From the NCBI GenBank assembly GCA_035632515.1, contig DASQGR010000149.1, forward strand, positions 1-49,343: DNA of 49,343 nt. The letters run 5' to 3'. The translations under genes were made by a program, and so were the position numbers. Every line of letters starts with the position of its first letter. Position 1 is the first letter of the stretch. This stretch comes from Stellaceae bacterium (GTDB lineage Bacteria; Pseudomonadota; Alphaproteobacteria; ATCC43930; CGMCC-115725). Positions 17,829-49,343 of this stretch are shown here, one piece after another. The notes under the pieces were generated by a model. It was not told where the DNA came from. It made no database searches and worked only from the letters and a program-made list of their open reading frames with translations.

Positions 17829-17857
17829 GGGCGCCGGGCGAACGGCGGGAGACCAAG

Positions 17858-27207: not shown

Positions 27208-27219
27208 GCTGGCTGCTCG

Positions 27220-27303: not shown

Positions 27304-27334
27304 GGGCGCAACACCCTTGCGGACGGTGCCCGGG

Positions 27335-30348: not shown

Positions 30349-31527
30349 CTACAGCCTCACCATCCCCATCCACCACTGGGTCCGGCCGCCGACATCGATG
30401 TCGTATTTGCGGACGAAATCGAGCTTGCCGTCATCGCCGATGCGAAACACCGAGAGGCAGCACGGCACTTCGCGGAATCCCGCGCCCTCCTTGACGGTGA
30501 TGCCCTGGATGTGGGCGGCCACCAGCATTCGTCCGCTCGGATCGATGTGAAAGGTGCGGCAATGGATGCCGCGAGTGTCGACGTGCTGGATCGCATTCGG
30601 CTCGCCGGTCGCCGGATCGATGGCAAAAACCGCGAGCGTGTTTTCGCCGCCGGCGAAGACGCTGCGGCCCTCGACCGGCACCGCGGTCGAGGCGCGATTC
30701 GCGACGTAGACGAACTTGCCGCTGGGATGGACATGCACGGTGCCGACCGCCTGGCGCGCGCCCGGCGGGACCGGCTGCGACAGGGTCGACTTGCGGAACG
30801 CCGCCTCCGGGGTCAGCGCGCCGTTGTTCAAGGGAAACATGTCGACCCGATTCTCGCGTTCGAGCGAGACATAGACCCACGGCCGGGCCGGGTGGAAATC
30901 GAGGTGGCGCGGGCCGAAGCCGTAGCCGCCATTGGGCGCGATCGAGACTTCCCGGCTTAACATCCCGGCGTTGTAGTCGAAGACCTTGAGCGCGCCGGGC
31001 TCCTCGGGCCTGGCGCCGGCCGGGTCGTGACCGCGGGTGACCAGAATCACCTGCTTGTTGTCCGGGGTGGCGCGCACCTGATGGGCGAAGATGCCCGGGT
31101 CGATCGTACCCGGCTGCGCCACCTCGACGCCCGGGGTGCCGTCCGGATTGATCCGGTAGATGTGGATCGAGCTTGGGTTGTTGAACGCGACCAGCGCGTG
31201 CTCGCTGGGGATGTCGGTCGCCATGTGGATCGGGCGGGTCGGCAGCGGGATCGAGGCCCCGTGCGGCGACAAGGCGCCCGAGCCCGGGTCGATTCGCAGC
31301 GCGGTGAGGCGATGATTCGTGCCGGCGGGCCCCATGCCCGAGGCGCTATCGCTGGTAGCGACGTAAAGAAAGGGCTGCGAGGCGTGCGGCCATGCGTATT
31401 GCACATTCGCCGGCAGCGATACCGTACCGCGTCGGGTCAGCGCGGCGCCGGCGACATCGACGTCGTAATGCGTCAGCTCGGCGCCGATATTAGCGTAAAG
31501 CGCGATTTTTGCTGCGGATGCGGGCAT
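30349..31527 (-). CDS. lactonase, 7-bladed beta-propeller family
   Basis: 392-aa ORF with repeated blade-like units (PFLYVATSDS, HALVAFNNPSSIHIY, KQVILVTRGHD, PWVYVSLEREN, KFVYVANRAS, RMLVAAHIQG), typical of the 6-phosphogluconolactonase / muconate lactonizing propeller family. Confidence 0.8.
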   Translation of the reverse strand: MPASAAKIALYANIGAELTHYDVDVAGAALTRRGTVSLPANVQYAWPHASQPFLYVATSDSASGMGPAGTNHRLTALRIDPGSGALSPHGASIPLPTRPIHMATDIPSEHALVAFNNPSSIHIYRINPDGTPGVEVAQPGTIDPGIFAHQVRATPDNKQVILVTRGHDPAGARPEEPGALKVFDYNAGMLSREVSIAPNGGYGFGPRHLDFHPARPWVYVSLERENRVDMFPLNNGALTPEAAFRKSTLSQPVPPGARQAVGTVHVHPSGKFVYVANRASTAVPVEGRSVFAGGENTLAVFAIDPATGEPNAIQHVDTRGIHCRTFHIDPSGRMLVAAHIQGITVKEGAGFREVPCCLSVFRIGDDGKLDFVRKYDIDVGGRTQWWMGMVRL

Positions 31528-31675: not shown

Positions 31676-31701
31676 CCCAGTTGGTAGATTCTTCAACTGG
31701 G
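31676..31701 (+). promoter_or_regulatory. inverted repeat in the leader or promoter of the redox operon
   Basis: CCCAGTTG-gtagattctt-CAACTGGG has 8-bp perfect arms and lies about 72 nt upstream of the TTG start at 31773. A second hairpin, GGCCGC-gagaa-GCGGCC, is at 31720-31736. A candidate extended -10 (TGCATAAAT) is at about 31650. Confidence 0.3.
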
Positions 31702-31772: not shown

Positions 31773-34223
31773 TTGGCCGCAGATTTCAAGGTTGTCATCA
31801 TTGGCTCCGGACCGGCCGGCTTGAGCGCCGCCGTTCACGCCGCCAAGGGCGGCGTGTCCCATGTGCTGCTCGAGCGTACCGACCACATCAACAACACCAT
31901 CTTCCGCTATCAAAAGCGCAAGCACGTGATGGCGACCCCCGAGGTCCTGCCGCTGCGCAGCGACCTCGAGTTCGAGGAGGAGTCGCGCGAGGAGTTGATC
32001 GACAGTTGGACCGGGGGTTCCACCGCAGCGGGGATCAACATCCGGTTCAACACCGAGGTGTCGGCGATCAAGGGCGAGAAGGGCAATTTCCAGGTTCAGC
32101 TCGTTGGCGGCGGGGTGATCTCCGCCGAATACGTCGTCCTCGCCATCGGGGTGCAGGGCAATTTCAACCGGTTGAGGGTTCCCGGCGCCGATCTGCCTTT
32201 CGTCCAGTACCAGCTCGACGATCCCGACGAATACCGGGAGGAGAAGATCGCGGTCATCGGGGTCGGCGATGCCGGCATCGAGAACGCGCTGGCGCTGGCG
32301 ACCAACAACGAAGTCTACGTGCTCAACCAGAAGGACGACTTCCCGCGGGCCAAGGCCGGCAATCGCGCGCTGATCATGGCCGCGGTTGCCAAGAACCCGG
32401 ACGAGGCGGGCTCGATCAACCACGTCGTCAACGTCGAGACGCAGGAAATCGTCGCCGGCCCGCCGGGCCAGCCCGGCGAACTGGTGCTGCACCGCGCCGA
32501 CGGCGCAACGGTGCGCGTCGCGTGCAACCGGGTCATCGCGCGCATCGGCGCACAGCCGCCGCGCCGCTTTCTCGAAGATTGCGGCATCGTCTTCACCAGC
32601 GCCGACCGCAACGCCATCCCGGAGGTGTCGGAGACCTACGAATCAGGGGTCAAGGGACTCTATATAATAGGGGCGCTGGCCGGGTACCCGCTGATCAAGC
32701 ATTGCCTCAACCAGGGCTACGAGGTCATCGAGTACATCCTCGGCAACGAGCTCCCGCCGGCCGACGAGCCGCTGATCCAGGCAAAGCTGACCCCCGAGAA
32801 GATACGTGTCCTCGATCCGAGCAAGGACGCGATGACCGGCGCCGAGCTGATCGGCTACATCAGAGCACGGGCGCCGATGTTTTCGGGCCTCAAGCCGATC
32901 CAGATCCGCGAATTCCTGATCCATGCGGAGCTGCATCGGCTGCAGCCCGGCGACGTCGTCTTCCGCCGGGGCGAGTCGACCAATTCGCTGTACACCATCC
33001 TCGACGGTCAGGTCGGCATCCAGATCGACCCGACCAATCCGGCGGAGATGGTTCATCTCGGACCCGGCCAGTTCTTTGGCGAGATGGGGCTGATCTCCGG
33101 CCGCAAGCGCACCGCCACGGTCGTCGCCGCCCAGCCGAGCCTGTTGCTCGAAGTCGACCGCAACACGATGATCCGGCTGGAGCGTTCGGAAGCATCGATC
33201 AAGCAGGCCATCGATTCGGCCGCCGTGATTCGCCAGATCAAGACGTTCCTGGCCCCGCAGGTCGAAGACAGCCTGCTCGCCGAGGTGGTGGCGACCTCCA
33301 AGATCGTCGAATTCAAGCCCGACCAGAAACTGATCGAAGAGGATGCCGAGGACGATGCGGTCTATCTGATTCGCAAGGGCTCGGTGACGGTGTCGATGCG
33401 GGTCGGCGGCAAGGATGTCGTGCTCGCCTATGTCCCGGCCGGCAATTATGTCGGCGAAATGGCGATGATCACCCGCCGCCGCCGTGCCGCAACGGTCACC
33501 GCCGCCAGCGTTACCGAGGCGATCCGCATCGACAGCAGCGCCTTTCGCAAGCTGCTCGACCGCGATCCCGACCTGCGTCGACGGGTCGAGGACAAGCTCG
33601 AGCAGCGGCTGGCCGAGCGCAACCAGATGCAGCAGAACGCCGAGACCGGCGATCTGATCAAATTCCTGGTGCGCGAGGGGCTGGGGGAGGCGACCAACGT
33701 CCTGCTGATCGACGAATCGCTCTGCGTGCGCTGCGACAATTGCGAGAAGGCCTGCGCCGAGACCCATCACGGCGTCAGCCGGCTCAACCGCGAGGCCGGG
33801 CCCACCTTTGCGATGGTGCACGTGCCGACCTCGTGCCGGCATTGCGAAGACCCGCATTGCATGACCGATTGTCCGCCGGACGCGATCCACCGCGCGCCGA
33901 ACGGCGAGGTGTTTATCAACGACCAATGCATCGGCTGCGAGAATTGTAAGAACAACTGTCCCTACGGCGTCATCCAGATGGCGGCGGTGCCGGAAGAAAA
34001 GCCCGGCCTGCTGAGCTGGCTGCTGTTCGGCTGGGGCGCCGGCCCGGGCGAGGACAAATCGCCGGAGGGCATGGCCAAGCGCACCGGCGGCAAGCATGCC
34101 GTCAAATGCGATATGTGCAAGGATCTGGCCGGACCGGCCTGCGTGCGCGCCTGCCCGACCGGCGCGGCGATTCGCGTCGATCCGGCCGGGTTCATCGACG
34201 TCATGCGCCAGGCCCAGGCATGA
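31773..34223 (+). CDS. fusion protein: TrxR-type FAD/NAD(P)H oxidoreductase + two cNMP-binding domains + four-cluster [4Fe-4S] ferredoxin domain
   Basis: 816 aa with a TTG start.
- **aa 4-320:** KVVIIGSGPAGLSAA and KIAVIGVGDAGIE dinucleotide folds, with no redox CxxC.
- **aa ~365-480 and ~495-605:** FGEMGLISGRKRTATV and VGEMAMITRRRRAATV cNMP signatures.
- **aa 651-794:** four Cys motifs, CVRCDNCEKAC, CRHCEDPHCMTDCP, CIGCENCKNNCP and CDMCKDLAGPACVRACP. Confidence 0.85.
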   Translation: MAADFKVVIIGSGPAGLSAAVHAAKGGVSHVLLERTDHINNTIFRYQKRKHVMATPEVLPLRSDLEFEEESREELIDSWTGGSTAAGINIRFNTEVSAIKGEKGNFQVQLVGGGVISAEYVVLAIGVQGNFNRLRVPGADLPFVQYQLDDPDEYREEKIAVIGVGDAGIENALALATNNEVYVLNQKDDFPRAKAGNRALIMAAVAKNPDEAGSINHVVNVETQEIVAGPPGQPGELVLHRADGATVRVACNRVIARIGAQPPRRFLEDCGIVFTSADRNAIPEVSETYESGVKGLYIIGALAGYPLIKHCLNQGYEVIEYILGNELPPADEPLIQAKLTPEKIRVLDPSKDAMTGAELIGYIRARAPMFSGLKPIQIREFLIHAELHRLQPGDVVFRRGESTNSLYTILDGQVGIQIDPTNPAEMVHLGPGQFFGEMGLISGRKRTATVVAAQPSLLLEVDRNTMIRLERSEASIKQAIDSAAVIRQIKTFLAPQVEDSLLAEVVATSKIVEFKPDQKLIEEDAEDDAVYLIRKGSVTVSMRVGGKDVVLAYVPAGNYVGEMAMITRRRRAATVTAASVTEAIRIDSSAFRKLLDRDPDLRRRVEDKLEQRLAERNQMQQNAETGDLIKFLVREGLGEATNVLLIDESLCVRCDNCEKACAETHHGVSRLNREAGPTFAMVHVPTSCRHCEDPHCMTDCPPDAIHRAPNGEVFINDQCIGCENCKNNCPYGVIQMAAVPEEKPGLLSWLLFGWGAGPGEDKSPEGMAKRTGGKHAVKCDMCKDLAGPACVRACPTGAAIRVDPAGFIDVMRQAQA

Positions 34224-35155
34224 GCGTCAGCGAACAGGCGGCCGCTCGGCCCAACGCCGCTTCCGCCGCCGCGCCGCGAACGGACCGGCACACCTCCTTC
34301 CTCGCCTATGAAGGGTATCGCTATCTGAAATGGGCGCTCGCCGCGGTGGTGGCGGCGATCCTGCTTTATTGGCTGGTGCCGCCCTACGGCGCGCGCTACG
34401 GCGGCGGCTGGGCCGGGTACACGCTGGGGACGGTGGGCGCCCTGCTGATCCTGTGGCTGACCTGGTTCGGCTATCGCAAGCGCACCTATGCCTCGAGCCT
34501 GGCCGGCGCGGCGGATGTCGGCGGCAATCCCGTCGAGGATCCGAGCCGGCTGGCGCGGCGACTGTCGGCGCATGTCTACCTCGGCAGCGCGCTGCTGGTC
34601 ATCGCGACGCTGCACACCGCGTTCAATTTTCATTGGAACATCCACACCCTGGCCTATGCACTGATGTGCATCGTCATTTTCAGCGGCATGTTCGGGGTTG
34701 TCGCCTATGCCCGCTATCCGCGGCGGATGACCGAGAATCGCGAAAACCTCACCCTGGGGCAGATGCTCACCCGTGTCGGCAGCATTGACGGCGAGTTGCG
34801 CCGCGGCGCGATGCAGCTCGACGATGCGACGGTCGCCATGATCGAGAATACGGTCGAGACGACCGCGATCGGGGGCTCGATGTGGCGGCAATTGTCGGGG
34901 CGCTATCCCCGGTGCACCACCGCCGCGGCGATCGCCCGCATGGATGCGCGCGCCGAGGCGGTCCCGCCCGAGCTGCAGGATGCCTGGCGCCAGACCCGGC
35001 TGAGGCTGGAGGAAAAGGCCGCCCTTCTGACGCGCCTGCGCCGCGACATCCGCTTCAAGGCGATGATGGAGGTGTGGCTCTTCCTGCATGTTCCGCTGAC
35101 CTTCGCCCTGATTGCCGCGCTTGTCGCCCACATCGTCGCGATCTTTTTCCTTTAG
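34220..35155 (+). CDS. 5-TM membrane protein with two H-x13-H pairs (candidate di-haem b-type transmembrane electron carrier)
   Basis: ATG 34220 overlaps the upstream stop (ATGA). TM3 is HVYLGSALLVIATLH (His codons at 34571 and 34613). TM5 is HVPLTFALIAALVAH (His codons at 35087 and 35129). An Arg-rich loop of about 95 aa separates TM4 and TM5. Confidence 0.7.
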   Translation: MSVSEQAAARPNAASAAAPRTDRHTSFLAYEGYRYLKWALAAVVAAILLYWLVPPYGARYGGGWAGYTLGTVGALLILWLTWFGYRKRTYASSLAGAADVGGNPVEDPSRLARRLSAHVYLGSALLVIATLHTAFNFHWNIHTLAYALMCIVIFSGMFGVVAYARYPRRMTENRENLTLGQMLTRVGSIDGELRRGAMQLDDATVAMIENTVETTAIGGSMWRQLSGRYPRCTTAAAIARMDARAEAVPPELQDAWRQTRLRLEEKAALLTRLRRDIRFKAMMEVWLFLHVPLTFALIAALVAHIVAIFFL

Positions 35156-35225
35156 CCCGATGCGGTCTTGAGATCGGCAATGTCCGCTTCCCACTCCCCG
35201 AACTTTCGCGATTGCGGCCGAGCGC

Positions 35226-36986
35226 ATGGAGGTTGAGTTCACCTTTCTCACCCAGCGCGGCACCGCGGTGATGCGCCGGTCTCAGCGAGCCAGCGCCGAC
35301 AGCGTGCGGCTGGGTCGCGGCACCGACAACGAGGTGCCGCTGGGCGATATTCGCGTCGGGCTGCGGGTGGCGCAGCTCGTGCGGCGTCCCGACGGGATCG
35401 CGATCGAGAAACTCGGGGCGATGCCGCTGCAGGTAAACGGCCAGTCGGTCGACAATGCGATGCTGCATGTCGGCGACGAGATTCGGCTCGGCCCCTACCG
35501 GATCGAGGTCACGGCACCGCCCGAGGGCTGCGACGGCGCGATCCAAATCGAACTGGCGGAGCCGCTGGCCTCGGCGACCGACCCGGTGCGGGCGAGCTCC
35601 CGAATCGGCCTGGAGCACGCCGGCTTCAGCAAGCGCATCGCCTCGTGGACCGGCGTCTTGGTGCTGGCGGTTATCTGCCTGGCGGTGCCGCTCATCGTCT
35701 TTACCAGCGGCGCGTTGACGCCGTGGCACAAGGACACGCCGGCACCGCATGCGACGACCCTGGTCGGGCTGTCGTGGAATACCGGCGAATTCTCGAATTC
35801 GCATCGATTTTTCGCCAAGAATTGCGCGACCTGCCATGAGGGCAAGTTCTCGCGCGTCGCCGACACGGCATGCCTTGCCTGCCACGCGGCGGTCGGCAGC
35901 CATGTCGAGCACGGCGTCAAGCTCGGCTCGGCGGGCGAGCAGCTGGCGGAGTCCCGCTGTATCGATTGCCATACCGAGCACCGCGGCGTGCGCGGCTCGG
36001 TGATCCGCACTGCCGCGCTCTGTCTCGACTGCCATCGCGGGCTCGACAAGACCGCTCCGGAGGCCGGGGTAAAGGCGGTCGGCGGCTATCCGGCCGGCCA
36101 CCCCCAGTTCCGCGCAACGCTTGTCGCCGATGCCGCAAAAAAGCAGAACGTGCGGGTCGAGCTCGGCAGCAAGCCGGCGCCGGCCGATCATCCGGGGATC
36201 AAATTCTCGCACGCGGCCCATCTCGTGCCGGGCGGCTTCCCGAAGCTCCACTACAAGGAGATGGCCTGCGCCGATTGCCATGTCCCGGAGCCGGGCGGCC
36301 AAAGCTTTCAGCCGATCACGTTCAAAGGCCAGTGCCAGAGCTGCCACAACGACAATCTGACATTCGACAGCGTCGCGTTGCCGTGGTCCGGCGCCAAGGT
36401 ACCGCATGGCGATGACAGCGCGGTCGTCGCCGGGGTGGTCAACTTCTATGCCGCGCAGGCAGTGCAGAACGGCGCCGCCGCGCCTGCCGCAACGCCCGCG
36501 GTCGAGCGGCGCGGCGCCGGCATGCCGACTTCGCTGGCAAGCGCGGCGCCGGCCAGCGTCCAGGCGTGGATACGCGACAAATCGCAGGCCGCGCTCCGGG
36601 TGATTTTCGACGAGAAGCGCGGCTGCGCCTATTGCCACTACGGCACCGGGGCGGACGGTGCCATCGACACCGGCAAGGTGATGGCGAGCCTGGCGGCAGA
36701 CAAGGAACCGCTGAAGGTGATCGCCGCGGTCGAGATGCGCACCCGGTTTCTGCCCAACGCGGTCTTCGACCATTCCCAGCACCGCGGCGTGAAGTGCGAG
36801 GAATGCCATGCCAGCCGCCAGTCCCAGGCAAGCGCCGACGTGCTGATCCCGGGCATCGAGACCTGCAAGACTTGCCACGGCGCCGAGGACGTCCACCTGC
36901 AGGTCAAGTCGACCTGCATTACCTGCCACGTCTTTCACCGCAGCGAGTTGGGGTTGATGCACATGACCGCGGAGGCGCCAAAATGA
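35226..36986 (+). CDS. FHA-like domain / single TM / decahaem c-type cytochrome
   Basis: 586 aa. aa ~1-98 are FHA-like (VRLGRGTDNEVPLGD...LQVNGQSV...VGDEIRLGPYRIEV). The TM helix spans aa 139-160 (WTGVLVLAVICLAVPLIVF). There are ten CxxCH motifs, with first Cys at aa 200, 216, 245, 266, 348, 370, 467, 524, 547 and 564. Confidence 0.85.
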   Translation: MEVEFTFLTQRGTAVMRRSQRASADSVRLGRGTDNEVPLGDIRVGLRVAQLVRRPDGIAIEKLGAMPLQVNGQSVDNAMLHVGDEIRLGPYRIEVTAPPEGCDGAIQIELAEPLASATDPVRASSRIGLEHAGFSKRIASWTGVLVLAVICLAVPLIVFTSGALTPWHKDTPAPHATTLVGLSWNTGEFSNSHRFFAKNCATCHEGKFSRVADTACLACHAAVGSHVEHGVKLGSAGEQLAESRCIDCHTEHRGVRGSVIRTAALCLDCHRGLDKTAPEAGVKAVGGYPAGHPQFRATLVADAAKKQNVRVELGSKPAPADHPGIKFSHAAHLVPGGFPKLHYKEMACADCHVPEPGGQSFQPITFKGQCQSCHNDNLTFDSVALPWSGAKVPHGDDSAVVAGVVNFYAAQAVQNGAAAPAATPAVERRGAGMPTSLASAAPASVQAWIRDKSQAALRVIFDEKRGCAYCHYGTGADGAIDTGKVMASLAADKEPLKVIAAVEMRTRFLPNAVFDHSQHRGVKCEECHASRQSQASADVLIPGIETCKTCHGAEDVHLQVKSTCITCHVFHRSELGLMHMTAEAPK

Positions 36987-38968
36987 CCGATTCGCGCCGA
37001 CCGAGATTTCTCCATCATCCGGCGTTTCGTGCCGCCATGGCGGTGCTTTCCGTATGGTGCATGGCGCCGGGCGGCTGTGGCGGCGGCAGCAGCGGCGCCA
37101 ACAACAGCAACCCGAACGCGATCACCCCGGCGGCGCCGGTTGCCGACACCAGCCCCAACCTGACCGAGAGCGACGTCAACACGATCGTGCTGCAGGCGAT
37201 CAACGAGGCGACCGCCCGCGGCCGGCCGGCGACCATTGCCGTGGTCGATCGGGTCGGCAATGTGCTGGCGGTGACCCAGATGGCAGGCGCGCCGGTCTTG
37301 GCGACGGTCACCTCGGGGCGCGGCGTGACGACCGGGCTCGAGACGGTTCAGGTGCCGACGACGCTCGCGGCGCTCGCCAAGGCCTATACCGGCGCCTACC
37401 TGTCGTCGAACGGCAACGCCTTCAGCACCCGCACTGCCAACCAGATCGTCCAAGAGCATTTCAACCCCGGCGTCCGCGGCACGCCGGGCGGGCCGCTGTT
37501 CGGGGTGCAGTTCAGCCAGCTCGCCTGCTCCGATTTCAACACCGCCGCCTCCCCCGTTGCCGGCGGCACCAATGCCGGGCCGCATCGCTCGCCGCTCGGC
37601 TTTTCCGCCGATTCCGGCGGGTTGCCGATCTACAAGAACGGCGTCCTCGCCGGCGGTATCGGGGTGATGACCAAGACCATCTATGGCGCCAACCTCAATA
37701 TTTTTGCCGTGCCGATCGATGACGACGAGGTGGTGGCTATCGCCGGAACGACTGGATACGCGGCGCCGCCGGCGATTACCGCCGACAACATCGCCGTCGG
37801 CGGCCTGACGCTGCAATATATCGACGCCTCCAGTGCCAATCTTGCCGCGCCGGTGTCGGCTGCGGGCACCTTCACGCCGCTGCCGGTGGCCGGGTACTGG
37901 GCCGGGCCCGCCGCCGGTCACACGGCGAATGCCGGGTTGATCTACGGCAGCGCGGACGGCGCTTCGGGAGTGGCTCCGGACGGCGCACTCGGCCCGGTGA
38001 TCTACCCCGGCACCACCCAGACCTCCTACGTCTTCACCGACGGCGCCGGCCATATCCTCTACCAGCCGACCGCAGGGGCGATGCCGGCAGACGGCAATGC
38101 GATCACCGCGGCGGAGGCGAAAGGGCTGACTACCGCGGCGCTCAATGTCGCCTACTCGGCCCGTGCCGCCATCCGGGTGCCGACCAACAGCTTCGCCCAG
38201 GTGACCGTCACCGTGGTCGATCTCGACGGCAATGTGCTGGCCCAGGCGCGCACCCCTGACGCACCGATCTTCGGCGCCGACGTGTCGCGGCAAAAGGCGC
38301 GCTCGGCCGTGTTCTTTTCGCGGCCCGACGCGGCAGCGAAGATCAACGCGATCACCGCTCCGGCGAGCACCGTGACCGGCACTTTTGCCGACTACATCAC
38401 CCGCTCGCAGTTGTTGATCGGCAGCGGCACCTTCTCCAACAGTTTGGCTTGGGCGGCGGTGTCGATCGGCGATGTGGCGCGGCCGTTTTATCCGGACGGC
38501 ATCGACGGCAACCAGCCGGGATCGCTGAGCCTGCCCTTCGACCGATGGAGCGTGTTTTCGACCGGCCTGCAGGTCGACCTGGTGACGAGCGATATCGTTG
38601 CCGGCACGACCGGGGCGCTGGCGCCCGCGACTGGCTGCGGCAACGCCAACGGCCGAGGCTTGCCGCCGACCGCGAGCGGCAAGACCCAGCTCGCCAACGG
38701 ACTGCAGATCTTCTCCGGGTCGGTGCCGATCTACCGCGGCAATGTCCTGGTCGGCGCCGTCGGCGTCTCCGGTGACGGCATCCAGCAGGACAGCCTGATC
38801 TCGTTCCTCGGCCTGGACCGCTTCGCCGCGCAGGACGGCGCAAACCCCATCGCCAACGCGCCCGCGGCAATCCGTGTCGACCTCCTCAAGCCGGCCGGCG
38901 TCAACCTGCGCTACACCAACTGTCCGGCGGCCCCCTTCGTCGACTCCACCGTGCAAAACCCGTGCTGA
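36983..38968 (+). CDS. probable lipoprotein with two GlcG/HbpS-like (DUF336) domains
   Basis: ATG 36983 overlaps the upstream stop (ATGA). The signal is followed by Cys and a Gly/Ser linker (MAPGGCGGGSSG). There are two DUF336-like units, ending in GGLPIYKNGVLAGGIGV and SGSVPIYRGNVLVGAVGVSGDGIQQD. Confidence 0.7.
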   Translation: MTDSRRPRFLHHPAFRAAMAVLSVWCMAPGGCGGGSSGANNSNPNAITPAAPVADTSPNLTESDVNTIVLQAINEATARGRPATIAVVDRVGNVLAVTQMAGAPVLATVTSGRGVTTGLETVQVPTTLAALAKAYTGAYLSSNGNAFSTRTANQIVQEHFNPGVRGTPGGPLFGVQFSQLACSDFNTAASPVAGGTNAGPHRSPLGFSADSGGLPIYKNGVLAGGIGVMTKTIYGANLNIFAVPIDDDEVVAIAGTTGYAAPPAITADNIAVGGLTLQYIDASSANLAAPVSAAGTFTPLPVAGYWAGPAAGHTANAGLIYGSADGASGVAPDGALGPVIYPGTTQTSYVFTDGAGHILYQPTAGAMPADGNAITAAEAKGLTTAALNVAYSARAAIRVPTNSFAQVTVTVVDLDGNVLAQARTPDAPIFGADVSRQKARSAVFFSRPDAAAKINAITAPASTVTGTFADYITRSQLLIGSGTFSNSLAWAAVSIGDVARPFYPDGIDGNQPGSLSLPFDRWSVFSTGLQVDLVTSDIVAGTTGALAPATGCGNANGRGLPPTASGKTQLANGLQIFSGSVPIYRGNVLVGAVGVSGDGIQQDSLISFLGLDRFAAQDGANPIANAPAAIRVDLLKPAGVNLRYTNCPAAPFVDSTVQNPC

Positions 38969-41037
38969 GCGTGCCCCGGCGTATCGACCGATCGCGGCGC
39001 GAGCGGCGACTGGGCCGCAGCGCGCTCGCGTTCATGGCCGCGATGACGGCGCTGACCGGCGCGGCCACGCCGCCCCACGCCTCGGTCGACATCGGCGAGC
39101 TGCGCCGCGACCGGCGCATGGCCGACGAGCTCTACTCGGCGACGACCGGCGACGCCGCCGCCTTCGAGAAAGCGCTAAAGACCCCGGTCCTGCGCAGCGA
39201 GCTCGAACGAACCCTCAACCGTCAGCTCTCCGACGAGACGCTCCAGGCGATGGCCTCGCACGCCCGTGCCGAGGCCGATTACTGGGCCTCCTATCGCCGC
39301 GGCATCGACATGGCGATCGGCGCCGAGGGCCCGTTGATCATGGGCCGCCGGGCGCCCGGCCGGGCCCCGCCGAGCTCGGAGGCCGAGCCCATCGTCAATC
39401 CGGCGGCGTTGCCGCCGCCCGAGCCGTTCGAGCGGGGCGGCTATGTCCCGGTGCAGGATCGCTGGCGCATTCTCGACGCGCTCGGCCGCCGTGAGAACCT
39501 GCTCGATCCCTACAACACCAACACGCTGAAGGCGGATAAGCCGATCTTCGGCGAGGACTGGTTCGTCAACGTCGCGGCGATCGTCGATATTCTCTACGAG
39601 CCGGCGCGGGTGCCGCTGGGGGTCGGCGCGCAATACATCGCGCGGCCGCTCGAAAACAATACATTCGGCCGCTACGGCCGCACCATGCTCAACCAGACCG
39701 ATATTCTCAGCGTCTCGTTGATCAAGGGCGACACCGCGTACAAGCCGCCCGATTTGGAGTTCCGCCTGACCCCGGCGTTCAATTTCAACCATACCGATGT
39801 CGGCGAAATCGGCGTCCTCAACATCGATCCGGCCTACGGGCAAACGCGCAACGACAATTTCATCGGCCTGCAGGAAGGGTTCATCGACTATCACTTCCGC
39901 AACGTCTCCGAGTATTACGATTTCGATTCGGTCCGCGTCGGCATCCAGCCGTTCAACGCCGATTTCCGCGGCTTTTTGTTTCAGGACAACCAGCTCGGCG
40001 TGCGCTTGTTCGGCGATCGCGACGCCAATCGCTGGCAGTACAACCTCGCCTATTTCCGCCGGCTCGAAAAAGACACCAATAGCGGCCTCAACGATATCGG
40101 CCAGGCAGTGCGGCAAGACGGCGTCTTTATCGCCAATTTGTTCCGCCAGGATTTCCCGGTGCACGGGTTCACCTCGCAGATTGCCTTTCTGCGCAACGAC
40201 AACCACGAGGGCGGCGATTTTCACTTCGACAAGAACGGGTTCCTCGTTCGCCCGTCGCAGATCGGCGACAATCGTGGCTACAACTATGACGCCAATTATC
40301 TCGGCTTCAACGGCGACGGCCATTTCGGCCGCGTCAACCTGACGACCTCGGCCTACTATCTGTTCGGCCATCTGAGCCACAATCAGTTTGGCGCGCCGGG
40401 CAACAAGGGCTCTGACATCAGCGCTTTCTTCGTTGCCGCCGAGCCGTCGATCGATTTCGACTGGGCGCGGTTCCGGTTGTCCGGCCTCTACGCCAGCGGC
40501 GCCCGGCATCCGCAAAGCGGTACGGTCGGCGGGTTCGATGCAGTGTTCGAGAACCCGCAATTCGCCGGTGCCGACTCGAGCTTCTGGATCCGCCAGTCGA
40601 TCCCGCTCATCGGCGGCGGCGGCGTGGCGCTCAACACCCCGAACGGCGTGCTCGCCGACCTGCGCTCGTCGAAGGGCGAGGGCCAGTCGAACTTCCTCAA
40701 TCCGGGGATCATGCTCGCCGGTATCGGCGGCGATTTCGACATTCTGCCCGAGCTGCGTTTGTCGACCAATTTCAACTATCTGCGCTTCGACACTACCGCC
40801 CCGCTCGAATTCCTGCGCCACCAGGCGAACATTCCCAACTCGATCGGCTGGGACCTGTCGGCGGCGCTGACCTACCGGCCGCTATTCACCCAGAATATCG
40901 TCTTCCGGCTCTCCGGCGCGGTGTTGCTGCCCGGCGAAGGCACCAAGGCGCTGTTCAATACGCCGGGCGGCCTCGGCCTCTTCGGCAATGACGGTCTGCT
41001 CTACTCGGTTCTGGCCAACGTGATCGTGAACTATTGA
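38962..41037 (+). CDS. large outer-membrane beta-barrel-like protein with a helical N-terminal extension
   Basis: 691 aa. GTG 38962 overlaps the upstream stop by 7 nt. It has a signal-like N-terminus, a helical segment of about 100 aa, then long runs of alternating-hydrophobicity strands rich in Y/F/N/G/D (NRWQYNLAYFRRLEKD, ISAFFVAAEPSIDFDWARFRLSGLYASG). The C-terminus ...VLANVIVNY ends in an aromatic residue. No family was recognised. Confidence 0.6.
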   Translation: MLSVPRRIDRSRRERRLGRSALAFMAAMTALTGAATPPHASVDIGELRRDRRMADELYSATTGDAAAFEKALKTPVLRSELERTLNRQLSDETLQAMASHARAEADYWASYRRGIDMAIGAEGPLIMGRRAPGRAPPSSEAEPIVNPAALPPPEPFERGGYVPVQDRWRILDALGRRENLLDPYNTNTLKADKPIFGEDWFVNVAAIVDILYEPARVPLGVGAQYIARPLENNTFGRYGRTMLNQTDILSVSLIKGDTAYKPPDLEFRLTPAFNFNHTDVGEIGVLNIDPAYGQTRNDNFIGLQEGFIDYHFRNVSEYYDFDSVRVGIQPFNADFRGFLFQDNQLGVRLFGDRDANRWQYNLAYFRRLEKDTNSGLNDIGQAVRQDGVFIANLFRQDFPVHGFTSQIAFLRNDNHEGGDFHFDKNGFLVRPSQIGDNRGYNYDANYLGFNGDGHFGRVNLTTSAYYLFGHLSHNQFGAPGNKGSDISAFFVAAEPSIDFDWARFRLSGLYASGARHPQSGTVGGFDAVFENPQFAGADSSFWIRQSIPLIGGGGVALNTPNGVLADLRSSKGEGQSNFLNPGIMLAGIGGDFDILPELRLSTNFNYLRFDTTAPLEFLRHQANIPNSIGWDLSAALTYRPLFTQNIVFRLSGAVLLPGEGTKALFNTPGGLGLFGNDGLLYSVLANVIVNY

Positions 41038-41041
41038 GACA

Positions 41042-44000
41042 ATGTCGCTGCGCGCTCTGATAGTAGCTGGATTGATGGCATGGGCCGGCGTCTTCGTCGC
41101 GCCGTCGCTTGCCCGCGCCGAGGAATCGCCGGCCGCCCATGAGGAGAGCGCGCCGCCGGCCCCACAAAAGCAGTCGGAGGCTGCGGCGCGGCTCAAGAGC
41201 GCCGGGTGCATGAGCTGCCATACGGCGACCGACTCGGTGACGATGCATACCAGCCCCGGGGTCGTCCTCGGCTGCGCCGATTGCCATGGCGGCAACGCTG
41301 CGGTGTTTGCGCAAGGTGCGGCGCCGGGAACCCCGGAATACCGCAAAGCGCTCGACGCCGCTCATGTCCACCCGCTTCATCCCGAAGCCTGGAATTACCC
41401 GTCGAGCGTCAAGCCGCCGCGCACCTACACGCTGCTCAACAAGGAATCGCCGGCGTTCATCCGCTTTATGAACCCGAGCGACTACCGGGTGGCGCGCGAG
41501 GCCTGCGGCGCCTGCCATCTGAAGGAGATCGCCGCCAACGAGCGCAGCCCGATGGCGACGACCGCGATGTTCTGGGCGGCCGGCGCGTACAATAACGGCA
41601 TCCTGCCGTTCAAGCACTCGATCGTCGGCGAGGCCTATACCCGGGAGGGCGAGCCGGCGACCCTGCTCGATCCCAATCCCCCCAGCCCCGAGGCGAGCCG
41701 CCTGCACGGGATCGAGCCGAAATTCGTGCCGCTGCCGACCTGGGAGGTGTTTCCGACCGGCGACGTCTTCCGCGTCTTTGAGCGCGGCGGCCGCACCATC
41801 AACACGCAATTCCCCGAGATCGGCAATCCGAACTCGACCGGCGAGCTACAGAAGCTCGAGGAGCCGGGGCGGCCCGATCTGAAGCAATCGAACCGCGGCC
41901 CCGCCACCGGGCTGCGGGTGTCGATCCCGATCCTCAACATCACCAAGACCCGGCTCAACGACCCGACCACCTGGTTCCTTGGCACCAACGACAATCCCGG
42001 CGACTATCGCAACTCAGGCTGTGCCGCGTGCCATGTCGTCTACGCCAACGACCGCGACGTGCAGGAGGGCGGGCCCTACGCCGCCTACGGCAATCGCGGC
42101 ACCGGCGCCGGTATCGACCCGACCATCCGCAAGGGCGAGTCGGGGCACCCGATCGTGCATCGCATGACCACGGCGATCCCGACCAGCCAGTGCATGATCT
42201 GCCACATGCATCAGCCGAACCTGTTCCTCAACAGCATGCTCGGCTACACGATGTGGGATTACGAGACCGGCGCGCCGCAGATGTGGCCGAAGCGGCAGAA
42301 ATACCCGACCGACACCGAGATGCGCGCCGCACTTGAGCGCAACCCCGAGGGGGCGGTGGTGCGCGGCAGATGGGCCGACCCGGAATTCTCGGCCAACGTC
42401 AACGAGCTCAACCCCAAGCTCAATGACACCCAGTTCGCCGACTATCACGGCCACGGCTGGAACTTCCGCGCGATCTTCAAGCGCGACCGCAAAGGCAACC
42501 TGCTCGACGACGACAACAACATCATCCCGGCCAGCGACCCGCAAAAATTCAAGAAGGCGGTGCACCTCGATTCGATCCACGTCGATTTTGGGATGCAATG
42601 CGTCGACTGCCATTTCTCGCAGGACAACCACGGCACCGGCCATCTCCACGGCGAGATCCAGGGTGCGATCGAGATCACCTGCGCCGATTGCCACGGCACT
42701 GCGACCAAGCTGCCGGATCTGAAGACCCACGGACCGGCGGCGCCGCCGCGGGGCACCGACATGTCGGCCTTGCGCACTGCCGATGGCCGCGCCCGTTTCG
42801 AATGGCGTGGCGACAAGCTGTTCCAGCGCTCGGCGGTCTATCCGGGGCTCGAGTGGCAGGTCACCCTGGTCAAGGACACGGTCACCCCGGGCAACCCGCA
42901 CTACAATCCGCGGGCGGCCCGCGCCAAGCTGATGTCGAAGGGCAACTCGATGGCCTGGGGGCCGGGGGTGCCGACAAATCAGCTCGCGCACGGCAGCGAC
43001 GAGATGGCGTGCTACACCTGCCATTTGTCGTGGACGACGAGCTGCGCCGGCTGCCACCTGCCGATCGAGGCCAATCAGCACACCGAACGACACCGCTATG
43101 AAGGCGAGACCACCCGCAATTTCGCCACCTACAATCCGCAAGTGGCGCGCGAGGACATGTTCCAGCTTGGCCGCCACAGCACGGTGAAGAACAACATCAT
43201 CGCCCCGATCGCGTCGCGCTCGGCGCTGGTGCTGTCGTCGACCAACATCAACCGCGAGCACATCTATGTGCAGCAGCCGCCGGTGTCGTCGTCCGGGTTC
43301 TCGGCCCAGGCGTTCTCGCCTCACTACCCGCATACCGAGCGGCGCACCGAGACCAAGACCTGCACCGACTGCCACATCTCGGCGCAGAACGACAACAACG
43401 CGATCATGGCCCAGCTGCTGCTGCTCGGGACCAATTTCGTCAATTTTGTCGGGCTCAATTCCTGGGTCGGCGAGGAACACGACATCGAGGCGGTGCGTGT
43501 CACCGAATGGGACGAGCCGCAGGCGGTGATCGGCAGCTACCTGCACCGCTATGCCTACCCGGACTACTACAAGAAGCACCTCGCCGAAGGCCGCAAACTG
43601 GAGGAGGCCCACGGTCATGCCTCCAACGACGCCAAATGTCTGCAGCTGCGCGGCGAATACCTCTTCGTCTCCGAGGGCTCCAACGGGACGCGGGCCTATG
43701 ATGTCGCCAGCATTGCCAACAAGGGCGTTTCCGAGCGCATCATCACCGCGCCCTTCTCGGCCCTCGGCCACGACACCCATATCGCCTCGAAAAACGCGAC
43801 CTGCGTCGTGCTGCCGACCGATCAGCCGATCAACCCGCTGCGCAATGCGGGCAAGAACGAGGCACTCGATTTCAGCCAGGATTACGGCCCGGTGATGCGC
43901 GGGGCGAACGAAGAACAGGTGATGCACCCGATCTACAACTACGCCTACATCACCGATTCCGTCGAAGGGCTGATCCTGACCAATGTCAACACGCTGCAGG

Positions 44001-44821
44001 ACCAGGAGCCGCGCAACAACTTCTTCACCCGGGCGCTGACCTGGAACGAGAACGGCATCCTTAACGGAGCCCGCTACCTGACCATCGCCGGGACCAAGTT
44101 CTACGTCACCGCCGATGCCGGCATCGTCGAGCTCGACATGGACGACCCGCTGCATCCCAAGCTCGTCGCGGTGATCCCCATCCGCGATGCCCGGGCGACA
44201 GTGGTGCAATTCCGCTATCTGTTTGTCGTCGGCGCCAGCGGGCTGGAAGTCGTCGACGTCACCAACCCGGCCCGGCCGGTGGTGGTGCCGGGCGCGCGCG
44301 TGCCGCTCGCCGATGCGCGGCGCATCTTTGTCGCTCGCACCTATGCCTATATTGCCGATGGCCGCGACGGGCTGGCGATCGTCGATGTCGAGCGGCCGGA
44401 CCACCCGTTCCTCAAGATGCAGTACACCGCCGACGGCAAGATCACCGACGCGCGCGATGTGGTCGTCGCCTCGACCAATGCCTCGCTCTTTGCCTATGTC
44501 GCCGACGGGGTGAATGGGCTCAAGGTGATCCAGTTGCTCTCGCCGGTCAGCCAGCCCAATTTCTACGGCTTTTCGCCGGAGCCGAAACCGGAGCTGATCT
44601 CGTGGTACCCGACCGCCTCGCCGGCGCTGTCGTTGTCGCGCGGGCTCGAGCGCGACCGCGCGGTCGACGAGACCGGACACCAGATCGCGGTATTTGGCCG
44701 CATCGGCTCGCGCCCGTTCACCCTCAAGGAAATGCAGCAGCTCTATATGGGCCCTGACGGCAAGCCGTTCACTGTCACCGATCAGGTGCAAAAGCAGGAC
44801 TTCGTGCCGGCGCGGCATTAA
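41042..44821 (+). CDS. secreted decahaem c-type cytochrome with a C-terminal LVIVD-repeat beta-propeller region
   Basis: 1259 aa with Sec signal MSLRALIVAGLMAWAGVFVAPSLARA. Ten widely spaced CxxCH motifs have first Cys at aa 56, 78, 155, 327, 384, 520, 547, 657, 668 and 774. aa ~865-1165 (nt 43634-44536) carry LVIVD-type repeats (YLFVSEGSNGTRAYDV, YAYITDSVEGLILTNV, FYVTADAGIVELDM, YLFVVGASGLEVVDV, YAYIADGRDGLAIVDV, FAYVADGVNGLKVIQL). Confidence 0.85.
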   Translation: MSLRALIVAGLMAWAGVFVAPSLARAEESPAAHEESAPPAPQKQSEAAARLKSAGCMSCHTATDSVTMHTSPGVVLGCADCHGGNAAVFAQGAAPGTPEYRKALDAAHVHPLHPEAWNYPSSVKPPRTYTLLNKESPAFIRFMNPSDYRVAREACGACHLKEIAANERSPMATTAMFWAAGAYNNGILPFKHSIVGEAYTREGEPATLLDPNPPSPEASRLHGIEPKFVPLPTWEVFPTGDVFRVFERGGRTINTQFPEIGNPNSTGELQKLEEPGRPDLKQSNRGPATGLRVSIPILNITKTRLNDPTTWFLGTNDNPGDYRNSGCAACHVVYANDRDVQEGGPYAAYGNRGTGAGIDPTIRKGESGHPIVHRMTTAIPTSQCMICHMHQPNLFLNSMLGYTMWDYETGAPQMWPKRQKYPTDTEMRAALERNPEGAVVRGRWADPEFSANVNELNPKLNDTQFADYHGHGWNFRAIFKRDRKGNLLDDDNNIIPASDPQKFKKAVHLDSIHVDFGMQCVDCHFSQDNHGTGHLHGEIQGAIEITCADCHGTATKLPDLKTHGPAAPPRGTDMSALRTADGRARFEWRGDKLFQRSAVYPGLEWQVTLVKDTVTPGNPHYNPRAARAKLMSKGNSMAWGPGVPTNQLAHGSDEMACYTCHLSWTTSCAGCHLPIEANQHTERHRYEGETTRNFATYNPQVAREDMFQLGRHSTVKNNIIAPIASRSALVLSSTNINREHIYVQQPPVSSSGFSAQAFSPHYPHTERRTETKTCTDCHISAQNDNNAIMAQLLLLGTNFVNFVGLNSWVGEEHDIEAVRVTEWDEPQAVIGSYLHRYAYPDYYKKHLAEGRKLEEAHGHASNDAKCLQLRGEYLFVSEGSNGTRAYDVASIANKGVSERIITAPFSALGHDTHIASKNATCVVLPTDQPINPLRNAGKNEALDFSQDYGPVMRGANEEQVMHPIYNYAYITDSVEGLILTNVNTLQDQEPRNNFFTRALTWNENGILNGARYLTIAGTKFYVTADAGIVELDMDDPLHPKLVAVIPIRDARATVVQFRYLFVVGASGLEVVDVTNPARPVVVPGARVPLADARRIFVARTYAYIADGRDGLAIVDVERPDHPFLKMQYTADGKITDARDVVVASTNASLFAYVADGVNGLKVIQLLSPVSQPNFYGFSPEPKPELISWYPTASPALSLSRGLERDRAVDETGHQIAVFGRIGSRPFTLKEMQQLYMGPDGKPFTVTDQVQKQDFVPARH

Positions 44822-44867
44822 CCTTTCCGAGGTTTCCGCTCGCTGCCAAACTGCGCTACCGTGCCTC

Positions 44868-45572
44868 ATGGATCGGCGTTTGTTTCTATCCTTGCTGGGT
44901 GCGGCATTGGCGTCGCCGTCGGTGTCACAGGCCCAACCGGCCGCTCCACGATTGCGCCGACTGAAACTGGTCAACGCCCATACCGGCGAGACCTTCAACG
45001 GACCCTATCGCGACGATGGCGGCCCGATCGCTGCGGCGATGGAGGACCTCTCCGCCTTCTTGCGCGACCATCATTCCGGCGAGACGATCGACTACGATGT
45101 CGGGGTCATCGATTTTCTCGCCGGGGTGATGGAGGCGGTCGGCGCCGGCCAGGCGACGATCCTTTCGGCCTATCGCACCCGGGCGACCAACCAGATGCTG
45201 GCGCGCACCACGTTCGGCGTCGCCGACAACAGCCAGCACATCTACGGCCGCGCGCTCGACATCTACCTGCCGGTGCGGCTCGATACCGCAATGGAGGTGG
45301 CGCGGGCGATGCAGCGCGGCGGTGTCGGCTGGTATCCGGATTCGCACTTCATGCACCTCGACAGCGGGCCGGTGCGCAACTGGACCCTGGGCGGCGAAGG
45401 GTTCGAGCGTTTGTTGCTCGAGTTGCGGCGGATCATCGCCAAGGGCGACCTCTCGGTGACGCCCAAGGGTGAGTTGCGGGTCGGCGACGAGCAGCGGCCG
45501 CTATCGGCAAAAGAGCGGTTGGCCCTGCACCGCCTCCTCAGCAAGGCCGAGGCGGCTGTCGCCTCTCACTGA
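44868..45572 (+). CDS. DUF882 / YcbK(MepK)-like peptidase M15 family protein with a Tat signal
   Basis: MDRRLFLSLLGAALASPSVSQA carries a twin-arginine motif. SQHIYGRALDIY (HxxGxAxD) and SHFMHLD are metal-ligand motifs typical of DUF882. Confidence 0.8.
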   Translation: MDRRLFLSLLGAALASPSVSQAQPAAPRLRRLKLVNAHTGETFNGPYRDDGGPIAAAMEDLSAFLRDHHSGETIDYDVGVIDFLAGVMEAVGAGQATILSAYRTRATNQMLARTTFGVADNSQHIYGRALDIYLPVRLDTAMEVARAMQRGGVGWYPDSHFMHLDSGPVRNWTLGGEGFERLLLELRRIIAKGDLSVTPKGELRVGDEQRPLSAKERLALHRLLSKAEAAVASH

Positions 45573-47675: not shown

Positions 47676-47769
47676 GGGCGGTCGACGGCCTCGCAGCCGG
47701 AACGAAACGACCTTAAAGGAATTTCCGCCGATGCAAAATCGGTTCCGTGGCGCCGTTGCTTGCCGTTGC

Positions 47770-49270: not shown

Positions 49271-49343
49271 GGCGACGGTCCAAGCCGCAGGGTGGACAGG
49301 GCCAATTGCCGCTGACGATGGCCGTCGCGCCAGGCGACGCTGA
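49267..49343 (-). CDS. gspI: type II secretion system minor pseudopilin I (C-terminal fragment at the window edge)
   Basis: Hand-translated ...SVAWRDGHRQRQLALSTLRLGPSP-stop, whose TGA overlaps the GTG of gspJ (GTGA). The call is made from position and the short C-terminal pattern only. Confidence 0.55.
   Translation of the reverse strand, partial: SVAWRDGHRQRQLALSTLRLGPSP

Follow-up and report, generated by a model that had tools for sequence, protein, structure and literature searches.

In a Stellaceae bacterium (assembly GCA_035632515.1), a stretch of 49,343 nucleotides (contig DASQGR010000149.1, positions 1 to 49,343; the whole stretch is referred to here as the window) contains six closely packed genes on the plus strand whose products may well form a single redox chain through the cell envelope. 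The first, g1 (31773-34223), encodes a cytoplasmic flavo-iron-sulfur (flavo-Fe-S) entry protein of 816 amino acids (aa), and is followed by g2 (34220-35155), the gene for a 311-aa inner-membrane protein with five transmembrane (TM) segments and a predicted role as di-haem b carrier. The product of g3 (35226-36986) has 586 aa, with a forkhead-associated (FHA)-like domain, a TM helix and a periplasmic decahaem domain. Further downstream are g4 (36983-38968), for an exported, probable lipoprotein of 661 aa with GlcG/HbpS-like (DUF336) domains, g5 (38962-41037), for an outer-membrane protein of 691 aa, and g6 (41042-44821), for a secreted decahaem cytochrome of 1259 aa that ends in an LVIVD beta-propeller.

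An earlier reading of this DNA from its letters alone, the first-pass annotation, had described the locus as six same-strand open reading frames, and all six lie in the window at the positions it gave. The junctions are likewise as described: ATGA overlaps join g1 to g2 (34220/34223) and g3 to g4 (36983/36986), a GTG..TGA overlap joins g4 to g5 (38962/38968), g5 and g6 are separated by 4 nucleotides (41037/41042), and the one larger gap, of 70 nucleotides, lies between g2 and g3 (35156-35225). Ten CxxCH motifs are found in each of g3 and g6, the numbers first counted, with no variant motifs in either, and Pfam searches gave the domains expected for g1, g3, g4 and g6. Longer starts for g2 (34106) and g4 (36566), taken from a mechanical list of open reading frames, were rejected because they overlap the upstream genes and have no support among orthologues.

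Three functional parts are recognizable in g1. A flavoprotein domain (31785-32717, plus strand; aa 5-315) has Rossmann motifs at aa 11 (GSGPAG) and aa 163 (GVGDAG) and matches Pyr_redox_3 (5.9e-33; also Pyr_redox_2). Tandem cyclic-nucleotide-binding (cNMP-binding) domains follow (32934-33629, plus strand; aa ~388-619; cNMP_binding 2.4e-37, in two stretches), each with the phosphate-binding cassette GE...R-x-A. The last part is an Fe-S domain (33702-34199, plus strand; aa 644-809; Fer4_7/Fer4_11), in which clusters of cysteines start at C651, C688, C719 and C779. Across 55 orthologues, residues G163, G165, D166 and E170 are at least 95% conserved and the cysteines of the four clusters are all at least 90% conserved, in motifs of the four-cluster type. 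Relatives in the PDB are the flavoprotein YpdA/Bdr, the cNMP domains of PKA/PKG and the four-cluster proteins HycB and ArrB; taking NCBIfam and PDB comparisons together, the Fe-S domain resembles HycB, HydN, DmsB and NrfC. Scans of g1 for a signal peptide and for TM segments found neither.

In g2, two pairs of histidines lie on the third (H118/H132) and fifth (H290/H304) of the five hydrophobic segments, and both H-x13-H pairs, together with H142, are invariant in 52 orthologues. By the positive-inside rule, one histidine of each pair is predicted to be near each face of the membrane, as is classic for a stack of two b haems spanning it; the binding of haem is likewise a prediction. Family resemblances are faint. 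A weak match to the Ni_hydr_CYTB/cytochrome b561 family (PF01292) appears in all 14 orthologues tested (best E 1.5e-6), with the protein from the window at 16.4 bits, below the cut-off of 30.1, and Ferric_reduct (PF01794) is matched by two of the 14 (best E 7e-3). Known members of the cytochrome b561/Ni_hydr_CYTB family react with quinones. A profile search with g2 against the PDB found no relative, only chance coiled-coil matches to the cytoplasmic loop.

A natural fusion in Myxococcota-type genomes indicates that the Fe-S/cNMP module of g1 works physically with the b-haem membrane module. The protein has 739 aa in a Kofleriaceae genome (L084 1748-3967, minus strand) and 759 aa in a second genome (L086 1829-4108, minus strand), and is annotated with cNMP_binding and Fer4 domains; its sequence was compared in L084, and the L086 protein is known by its layout and domain annotation. 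Residues 2-434 of the L084 protein match g1 residues 365-809 (31% identity, E 1e-55). Its C-terminal part is related to g2 (25% identity, E 2e-10), and in this alignment the four histidines coincide and both H-x13-H spacings are kept. The fusion thus backs, as the strongest piece of new evidence, the coupling, first proposed from the single locus, of a cytoplasmic flavo-Fe-S entry protein to a di-haem-b-like membrane protein. Its neighbour in both genomes is a 3xFHA-Pyr_redox protein, with an added 4Fe-4S domain in L084, and an LVIVD multihaem protein adjoins the two genes and is divergently transcribed. From this comparison of domains, the flavoprotein, FHA, cNMP and Fe-S domains are read as one system, whichever polypeptide holds them. 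Clusters with at least 46 haems also lie beside the fusion proteins in these two genomes.

The layout of g3 places its N-terminus inside the cell, with the FHA-like domain (aa 25-93) in the cytoplasm, a TM helix at aa 142-160 and the decahaem domain (aa 193-571) in the periplasm. All ten CxxCH motifs are kept in 49 of 51 orthologues, and there are exactly ten further invariant histidines beyond those of the motifs, from which ten bis-His haems are expected, a pattern that points to a wire rather than an enzyme. In Pfam, domains of the c3/c7 haem type were found alongside an FHA match that is marginal (21.6 bits against a cut-off of 20.7) and backed by FHA-domain matches in the PDB. The FHA-like domain (35298-35504, ...GDIRVGLRVAQL...) scores equally with the YscD-type FHA-like family, and by eye the serine and histidine of the phosphothreonine pocket are apparently missing. 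No FHA match was found in the Duganella homologue that was scanned. Judged on these features, the domain may serve for docking rather than for reading phosphopeptides.

The match of g4 to PF03928 (HbpS-like/GlcG; 6.9e-19) falls in three stretches, which are read as two expanded domains, and its PDB matches are EfgA, 2a2l, the C-terminal domain of PduO and a putative extracellular haem-binding protein. Its lipobox is non-canonical in the window and takes the clear form L-x-x-C-G-G-G in many orthologues. A role for g4 as a shuttle or carrier of haem b was considered and is unsupported, as there is no conserved histidine. Slam-type (SlipAM) genes occur near the cluster at two other loci (L080 1480-3012, plus strand; L081 427-1779, minus strand), raising the possibility that the lipoprotein is surface-exposed in some lineages.

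No family in Pfam or NCBIfam was matched by g5, which has a signal peptide, a helical periplasmic domain (aa 44-119), a proline-rich linker and a barrel (aa ~200-689). The AlphaFold2 (AF2) model of the protein has 18 barrel strands, with a predicted local distance difference test score (pLDDT) of 70-87 in most of them and a mean of 60.7. A Foldseek search with the model gave AlgE as the top match (E 2e-14) followed by OccD/OprD porins, and all orthologues end in Y, F or W. The 18-strand model, the AlgE/OprD-type matches and the aromatic C-terminal residue together identify g5 as an outer-membrane beta-barrel, which is what it had been taken for at first sight.

The haems of g6 lie between aa 56 and 778 and the LVIVD propeller at aa ~965-1165 (Pfam LVIVD 2.5e-16), with the ten CxxCH motifs kept in 79 of 79 orthologues. 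Searches of the PDB, with the single sequence and with a profile, found no relatives. The propeller is the sole confident part of the AF2 model, and with the haem domain unusable Foldseek returned generic beta-propellers only. In a library of representatives at 50% identity, 2,681 entries are related to the haem domain, and full-length clusters make up only a handful of them. The LVIVD fusion is kept in six of the seven divergent full-length relatives scanned; the seventh, P0354 (35% identical, two CxxCH), has no Pfam match. Some distant relatives have lipoboxes and one has 28 CxxCH motifs and MtrC-like domains, so that in sequence these proteins look like extracellular electron-transfer cytochromes. 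ExtM-like and other cytochromes of 650-800 aa are remote relatives of the haem domain alone.

Relatives of g6 were found in at least 587 stretches in a scan of one genome per species, and these belong to Alpha-, Beta- and Gammaproteobacteria and to Acidobacteriota. The nearest are in Stellaceae metagenome-assembled genomes, and carrier lineages include Steroidobacter, Duganella, Dokdonella, Halieaceae and Stellaceae. Among the carriers in culture are Steroidobacter agaridevorans SA29-B, Duganella guangzhouensis FT80W and one strain each from Halieaceae (GM1-29) and Lysobacteraceae. Synteny was counted in 80 loci fetched from these stretches. All six genes are present in 52 of the 80, from four classes or phyla, and 25 of the 28 incomplete loci end at contig ends. 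Among the 52 complete loci the order is g1 to g6 in 43, in Alpha- and Gammaproteobacteria, and g2 to g6 followed by g1 in nine, in Betaproteobacteria and Acidobacteriota, where a c554-like gene may stand between g6 and g1. This co-occurrence in conserved order agrees with the original proposal of one system. Across loci, identity is 60-83% for g6, 47-80% for g5, 41-68% for g1, 38-71% for g4, 34-60% for g2 and 26-55% for g3; g6 is therefore the most conserved gene of the set and g3 the fastest-evolving. In a large protein collection g6 and g5 each form more than 7,500 clusters at 90% identity, virtually all named 'hypothetical protein'.

The inventory of six genes holds for the window, and has to be enlarged for the system, which usually has a seventh. 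This gene encodes a tetrahaem Cytochrome_C554-like protein of 430-480 aa and lies directly downstream of g6 in most lineages, being present in most Beta-/Gammaproteobacteria and Acidobacteriota and in many Alphaproteobacteria (L079 13655-14965; L057 11199-12611; L081 13810-15216; and ~33 other loci). A tblastn search of the window for the c554-like gene found none, and in the 82%-identical relative L082 it is absent within 10 kb of the cluster.

Regulatory genes recur in the neighbourhood of the cluster and of its relatives. In the Steroidobacter group it is accompanied by genes for a PP2C phosphatase and a double-FHA protein, with one for a Ser/Thr kinase in addition at L077. Genes for CHASE2 nucleotide cyclases are found next to divergent g6-like ones (L083 14184-16043, minus strand; L087 638-3022, plus strand), and L087 also has a HEAT-repeat cNMP-binding protein (4679-7966, plus strand). 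With cyclases, a cNMP protein, a phosphatase, a kinase and FHA proteins among the neighbours, control by cyclic nucleotides and by phospho-Ser/Thr is a recurrent theme, and the CHASE2 and HEAT-cNMP genes suggest that cyclic-nucleotide control is general for the g6 family.

Comparison with characterized conduits shows both shared principles and consistent differences. The Mtr/Pio/Mto and Geobacter Pcc/Ext systems likewise combine multihaem c cytochromes and a barrel in one operon, with a decahaem protein as periplasmic wire. None of the six proteins reaches the cut-off of a curated NCBIfam model, and the Pfam scores for conduit families are also below their cut-offs, in agreement with the initial view that no characterized conduit is present. 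For example, g3 scores 21.3 bits with TIGR03508 decahem_SO (MtrA/DmsE; cut-off 192.2), and unlike MtrA it is membrane-anchored and carries an FHA-like domain. The barrel g5 has no MtrB_PioB match and 18 strands, not 20-28 (26-28 in MtrB/PioB). With the Mtrc-MtrF_II-IV_dom family of MtrC/OmcA, g6 scores 19.5 bits (cut-off 30), and its signal peptide is of the signal peptidase I (SPase-I) type, not that of a lipoprotein. Against the Geobacter Ext proteins, g6 reaches 71.6 bits with NF040943 ExtM (cut-off 800) and g3 16.2 bits with ExtS (cut-off 100).

The entry step is also different. In place of a quinol dehydrogenase of the CymA/ImcH/Cbc type, the entry here is a flavo-Fe-S/haem b module. Quinol dehydrogenases of the NapC/NirT/NrfH/CymA type are missing from the cluster, as had been noted: g3 scores 18.7 bits with TIGR03153 NrfH (cut-off 134.2), has no Cytochrom_NNT match and, unlike NapC/NirT, has ~40 residues between its TM helix and the first CxxCH. 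An NrfD-type subunit is also lacking, since none of the six proteins matches the NrfD/PsrC family.

A closer parallel in logic is provided by NOX/FRE enzymes and by Fre-MsrQ-MsrP, in which electrons pass from NAD(P)H to flavin, to two b haems and to an acceptor across the membrane. In NOX/FRE, the ligands of the two b haems are two His pairs, spaced by ~13 residues and carried on two helices, and electron export is tightly regulated and conserves no energy. The differences lie in the flavin domain, which in g1 is of the Pyr_redox type (YpdA/TrxR-like) and not FNR-like, in the four [4Fe-4S] clusters that are interposed, in the five TM segments of g2 with their weak Ferric_reduct signal in 2/14 orthologues, and in the output, which is a ten-haem wire and not O2, Fe(III) or MsrP. 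From its sequence, the cluster is thus predicted to work like NOX but outside the ferric-reductase family. The pairing of a four-cluster ferredoxin with a di-haem b protein is the same as in the respiratory enzyme modules FdnH-FdnI, HybA and HycB, a classic combination for moving electrons across a membrane, with g1 HycB/HydN/DmsB-like and g2 Ni_hydr_CYTB-like. In contrast to the FdnH type, the Fe-S protein is here cytoplasmic, without a Tat signal, and fused to a flavoprotein and cNMP sensors, and its partner is a multihaem c wire.

The closest described system is the ptdABCDEFG operon of the marine Alphaproteobacteria UBA11136 and others, which was reported without an assigned function (bioRxiv 10.1101/2023.11.21.568154). 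Its parts are an FAD oxidoreductase, a cNMP/4Fe-4S protein, the ferric-reductase-like TM protein PtdF, the decahaem PtdG, the tetrahaem PtdD and the porin PtdB, and its authors proposed a porin-cytochrome complex (bioRxiv 10.1101/2023.11.21.568154). Tistlia consotensis is one example of a carrier (PtdA-G, SMF72578-SMF72608). The comparison of ptd with g1-g3 was by domain descriptions only, and these agree for PtdE, PtdF and PtdG. The operons differ in that the terminal cytochrome PtdA is a pentahaem NrfA-family protein with a beta-sandwich, whereas the window has no pentahaem or NrfA-like protein and ends in the decahaem-LVIVD protein g6. Furthermore, ptd has no GlcG/HbpS lipoprotein, its gene order is different, its flavoprotein and cNMP/Fe-S protein are separate, and PtdC is flavohaemoprotein-like (FNR type), not Pyr_redox.

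In Ferrigenium straubiae, a trio consisting of a 4Fe-4S protein, a 5-TM protein and an FHA-nonahaem cytochrome has been described, likewise with no function assigned (bioRxiv 10.64898/2026.01.22.701106, section 6.3.2). Its architecture is that of g1-g2-g3, in that a cytosolic Fe-S protein is combined with a membrane protein of five helices and with a multihaem cytochrome that has one TM helix and a cytoplasmic FHA domain. It lies between nirK and an SHP-like gene, both for periplasmic redox proteins, and no outer module is mentioned (bioRxiv 10.64898/2026.01.22.701106). Its authors, who saw no redox motif in the membrane protein, suggested that the cytochrome reduces quinone (bioRxiv 10.64898/2026.01.22.701106); our reading differs, in that the invariant H-x13-H pairs and the Myxococcota fusion point to haem b. 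A pangenome of Gallionellaceae lists a 'Forkhead-associated protein, 10 haems' as cluster 403, without comment (PMC9900912). The literature search brought up only the ptd and Ferrigenium reports and one on the uet cluster of Tenderiales, which is unrelated in content, and no paper on a six- or seven-gene cluster with an LVIVD decahaem was found; MccSep (GSU2936) was also compared and is irrelevant. The description of the system as undescribed is therefore to be softened: it applies to the cluster as a whole in the literature found, and related modules, the ptd parts list and the Ferrigenium trio, had already been named.

The reading that we favour, at a probability of roughly 55%, is that the six genes encode one modular trans-envelope redox chain, in which electrons leave NAD(P)H in the cytoplasm and travel outward to an extracytoplasmic acceptor. 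It is built on gene content, domain identities, conservation, synteny and the g1-g2 fusion. In this scheme, g1 would oxidize NAD(P)H on FAD and pass the electrons to its four [4Fe-4S] clusters, with the two cyclic-nucleotide-binding domains gating their passage. The Fe-S domain would dock on g2, where electrons would move from the b haem at H118/H290 on the cytoplasmic side to the one at H132/H304 on the periplasmic side, and g2 would then reduce g3, the inner-membrane-anchored wire of ten bis-His c haems, whose cytoplasmic FHA-like domain could act as a second regulatory handle. From g3, electrons would reach an outer module consisting of the lipoprotein g4, the 18-strand barrel g5 and the secreted decahaem/propeller protein g6, joined in most other lineages by the tetrahaem c554-like protein, with g6 as putative terminal reductase or contact protein. 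Cofactor occupancy, the order of the carriers, the direction of flow, the location of g6 and the acceptor are proposals of the model.

The outward direction is suggested by the membrane potential, which helps electrons to move from the negative to the positive side; flow inward to NAD(P)+ (-320 mV) is disfavoured because it would run against the redox gradient as well as the electrical one. Outward export dissipates the membrane potential, as it does in NADPH oxidases, and so would fit with tight regulation and a non-respiratory role. The carrier genera are mostly aerobic heterotroph lineages and not known lithotrophs, which makes iron acquisition, the reduction of oxidants or superoxide more plausible than dissimilatory metal respiration. 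Candidate roles are reductive iron acquisition, the reduction of extracellular or periplasmic oxidants, and superoxide formation. A bolder version, which we regard as doubtful, would make the cluster an envelope-spanning 'bacterial NADPH oxidase/ferric reductase' of aerobic Gram-negative heterotrophs, gated by cyclic nucleotides and phosphothreonine, spending NAD(P)H to bring electrons to the cell surface independently of quinones and respiration, with extracellular superoxide or Fe(III)/Mn oxide/organic-complex reduction as its output in oxic soils and oceans.

A number of observations weigh against the outward trans-envelope chain. The signal peptides of g6 and all its close orthologues are of the SPase-I type, with no lipobox, and 60-83% identity across classes makes g6 appear enzyme-like rather than MtrC-like. 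Its haem domain is unusable in the AF2 model (residues 46-1245, 35 homologues; mean pLDDT 45.9). In the alignment of orthologues, g4 has no conserved His or Met ligand and four conserved Cys. By simple barrel geometry, an 18-strand g5 is unlikely to enclose a folded decahaem domain in the way the 26-strand MtrB does, so that the model offers no ready route for electrons across the outer membrane. The general secretion (Gsp) genes that follow the cluster in the window adjoin it in only ~9 close alphaproteobacterial loci and are absent in L082, which lies on a 260-kb contig. A link of g2 to the quinone pool is possible, given its likeness to quinone-reactive cytochromes b. Finally, the entry trio and the outer module can work with other partners, as seen in Ferrigenium and in L077 and L080, where g4-g6 stand without adjacent g1-g3 and, in L077, a c554-like gene follows g6.

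Two parts of the first-pass annotation are affected by these points. A redox function for g4 is not established, as it has no conserved ligand. Transfer to the cell surface is also not established: with ordinary signal peptides on g6, a small AlgE/OprD-like g5 and unconserved type II secretion genes, a periplasmic g6 is equally possible. The same observations lead to a less probable alternative, in which NAD(P)H entry is unchanged and the outer half is a periplasmic enzyme system, with g6 as a soluble multihaem reductase whose propeller binds a specific soluble substrate, g5 as the dedicated channel for that substrate through the outer membrane and g4 as an accessory lipoprotein. The absence of a lipid anchor on g6, the variable type II secretion neighbourhood and the enzyme-like conservation of g6, well above that of the other five proteins, would all fit, as would the best matches of g5, since AlgE and OccD/OprD are substrate-specific 18-strand channels. 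The position of the Ferrigenium trio between nirK and the SHP-like gene is also in its favour (bioRxiv 10.64898/2026.01.22.701106). An enzyme with an open haem is, however, neither shown nor excluded by the sequence, because g6 has 11-12 conserved non-motif histidines for its ten haems and no CxxCK or other variant motif, so that no open catalytic haem is evident. Furthermore, some distant relatives are lipoproteins or have many extra haems and MtrC-like domains, and this alternative lacks a candidate for the substrate. Propellers of the LVIVD kind typically belong to surface proteins, as the Pfam description also says.

The family likeness of g2 bears on a further claim, that electron entry bypasses the quinone pool. 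This is not established, since the sole family likeness of g2 is to the quinone-reactive cytochromes of the b561/Ni_hydr_CYTB type. The same likeness allows the chain to be turned round: g6, with the c554-like protein, would oxidize an external or periplasmic donor, for example Fe(II), Mn(II), reduced humics or some compound of nitrogen or sulfur, and pass electrons through g3 to g2, which would reduce quinone in the manner of FdnI or cytochrome b561, leaving g1 as a regulatory or side branch. We consider such an inward chain unlikely. In its favour, energy would be conserved if electrons flowed inward through a di-haem b protein, as they do in formate dehydrogenase-N, and the tetrahaem c554-like protein stands beside g6 in most lineages. 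FHA-decahaem genes are also common in iron-oxidizing Gallionellaceae (PMC9900912, cluster 403; bioRxiv 10.64898/2026.01.22.701106). An inward chain would nevertheless leave without a role a co-inherited NAD(P)H/FAD and four-cluster chain, the cNMP/4Fe-4S half of which is fused to the b-haem module in Myxococcota. Reduction of NAD(P)+ from donors of this kind is disfavoured on the energetic grounds given above, and the aerobic heterotrophic habit of most carriers also speaks against it.

The outward chain requires that the two halves belong together. At three loci with a full upstream flank (L075, L077 and L080), some or all of g1-g3 are missing beside g4-g6, and from L077, L080 and the Ferrigenium trio it follows that the entry and outer modules are separable though usually linked. 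Taken to its limit, this would mean two independent operons side by side, g1-g3 as a general periplasmic electron supply and g4-g6 as an unrelated surface or adhesion system, which could also accommodate the lack of a conserved redox ligand in g4 and an entry trio reported with no mention of an outer module (bioRxiv 10.64898/2026.01.22.701106). We judge this very improbable, as g3 and g4 overlap by ATGA in the window and the halves occur together in 52 of 52 complete loci and in two gene orders. In addition, the association of an LVIVD multihaem protein with cNMP/Fe-S, flavoprotein and FHA domains recurs in Myxococcota at 26-29% identity.

To our knowledge, the known trans-envelope conduits (Mtr, Pcc/Ext, Pio/Mto, Cyc2) are all tied to the quinone pool or to soluble cytochromes, and they have been studied mainly in metal-respiring or metal-oxidizing specialists. 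The cluster considered here differs in that multihaem wires are coupled to a flavo-Fe-S protein of the cytoplasm that uses NAD(P)H and is probably controlled by cyclic nucleotides. Its carriers, which number in the hundreds of species, are ordinary bacteria of soil, fresh water and the sea. Should the outward model hold, aerobic bacteria would have a new and regulated way of exporting reducing power, with a bearing on the as yet unexplained enzymes behind bacterial extracellular superoxide, on reductive iron acquisition and on humic/metal redox cycling in oxic environments. The cultured carriers and the natural Myxococcota fusion protein provide direct handles for biochemistry.

Upstream of g1, a perfect 7-bp inverted repeat, CCAGTTG-N10-CAACTGG, is located at 31677-31700, 73 nucleotides before the gene. 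Its core, TTGGTAGATTCT, is common to the window and the nearest relative, L082, and an alignment of the regions upstream of g1 showed nothing else in common with that relative beyond this short motif. The repeat does not fit the consensus spacing of FNR or CRP sites. A scan for promoters and terminators across the cluster found nothing promoter-like, and terminator-like sites about as often as chance would give.

Several neighbouring genes are recorded here as side observations. Convergent with the cluster is a type II secretion/pseudopilin set (45566-49343, minus strand; GspC-like, PilM/PilN-like GspL/M, GspK and an N-methyl pseudopilin), which runs past the end of the window; as adjacent Gsp genes are unconserved, type II secretion was rejected as evidence for the export route of g6. 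Directly after g6, a DUF882/peptidase M15 gene (44694-45572, plus strand) has counterparts in the nearest relatives L001, L004 and L008 (57-83% identity) and is not part of the conserved system. A lactonase gene (30349-31527, minus strand) is a conserved upstream neighbour in L082, and a gene for uroporphyrinogen-III synthase (HemD, haem biosynthesis; 27176-28144, plus strand) is located 3.6 kb upstream of the cluster. Further away is a gene for a Crp/Fnr-family transcription factor (19082-19822, plus strand; cNMP_binding and HTH_Crp_2), in a stretch of lower G + C content (0.59-0.62, ~18-22 kb) beside tRNA-Thr(TGT) (21569-21642), which may be a small island. At L081, a locus of the beta type, a gene for an NADP-type malic enzyme (17787-20078, plus strand; malic, Malic_M, PTA_PTB) directly follows g1 and could be a local source of NADPH, or a coincidence.

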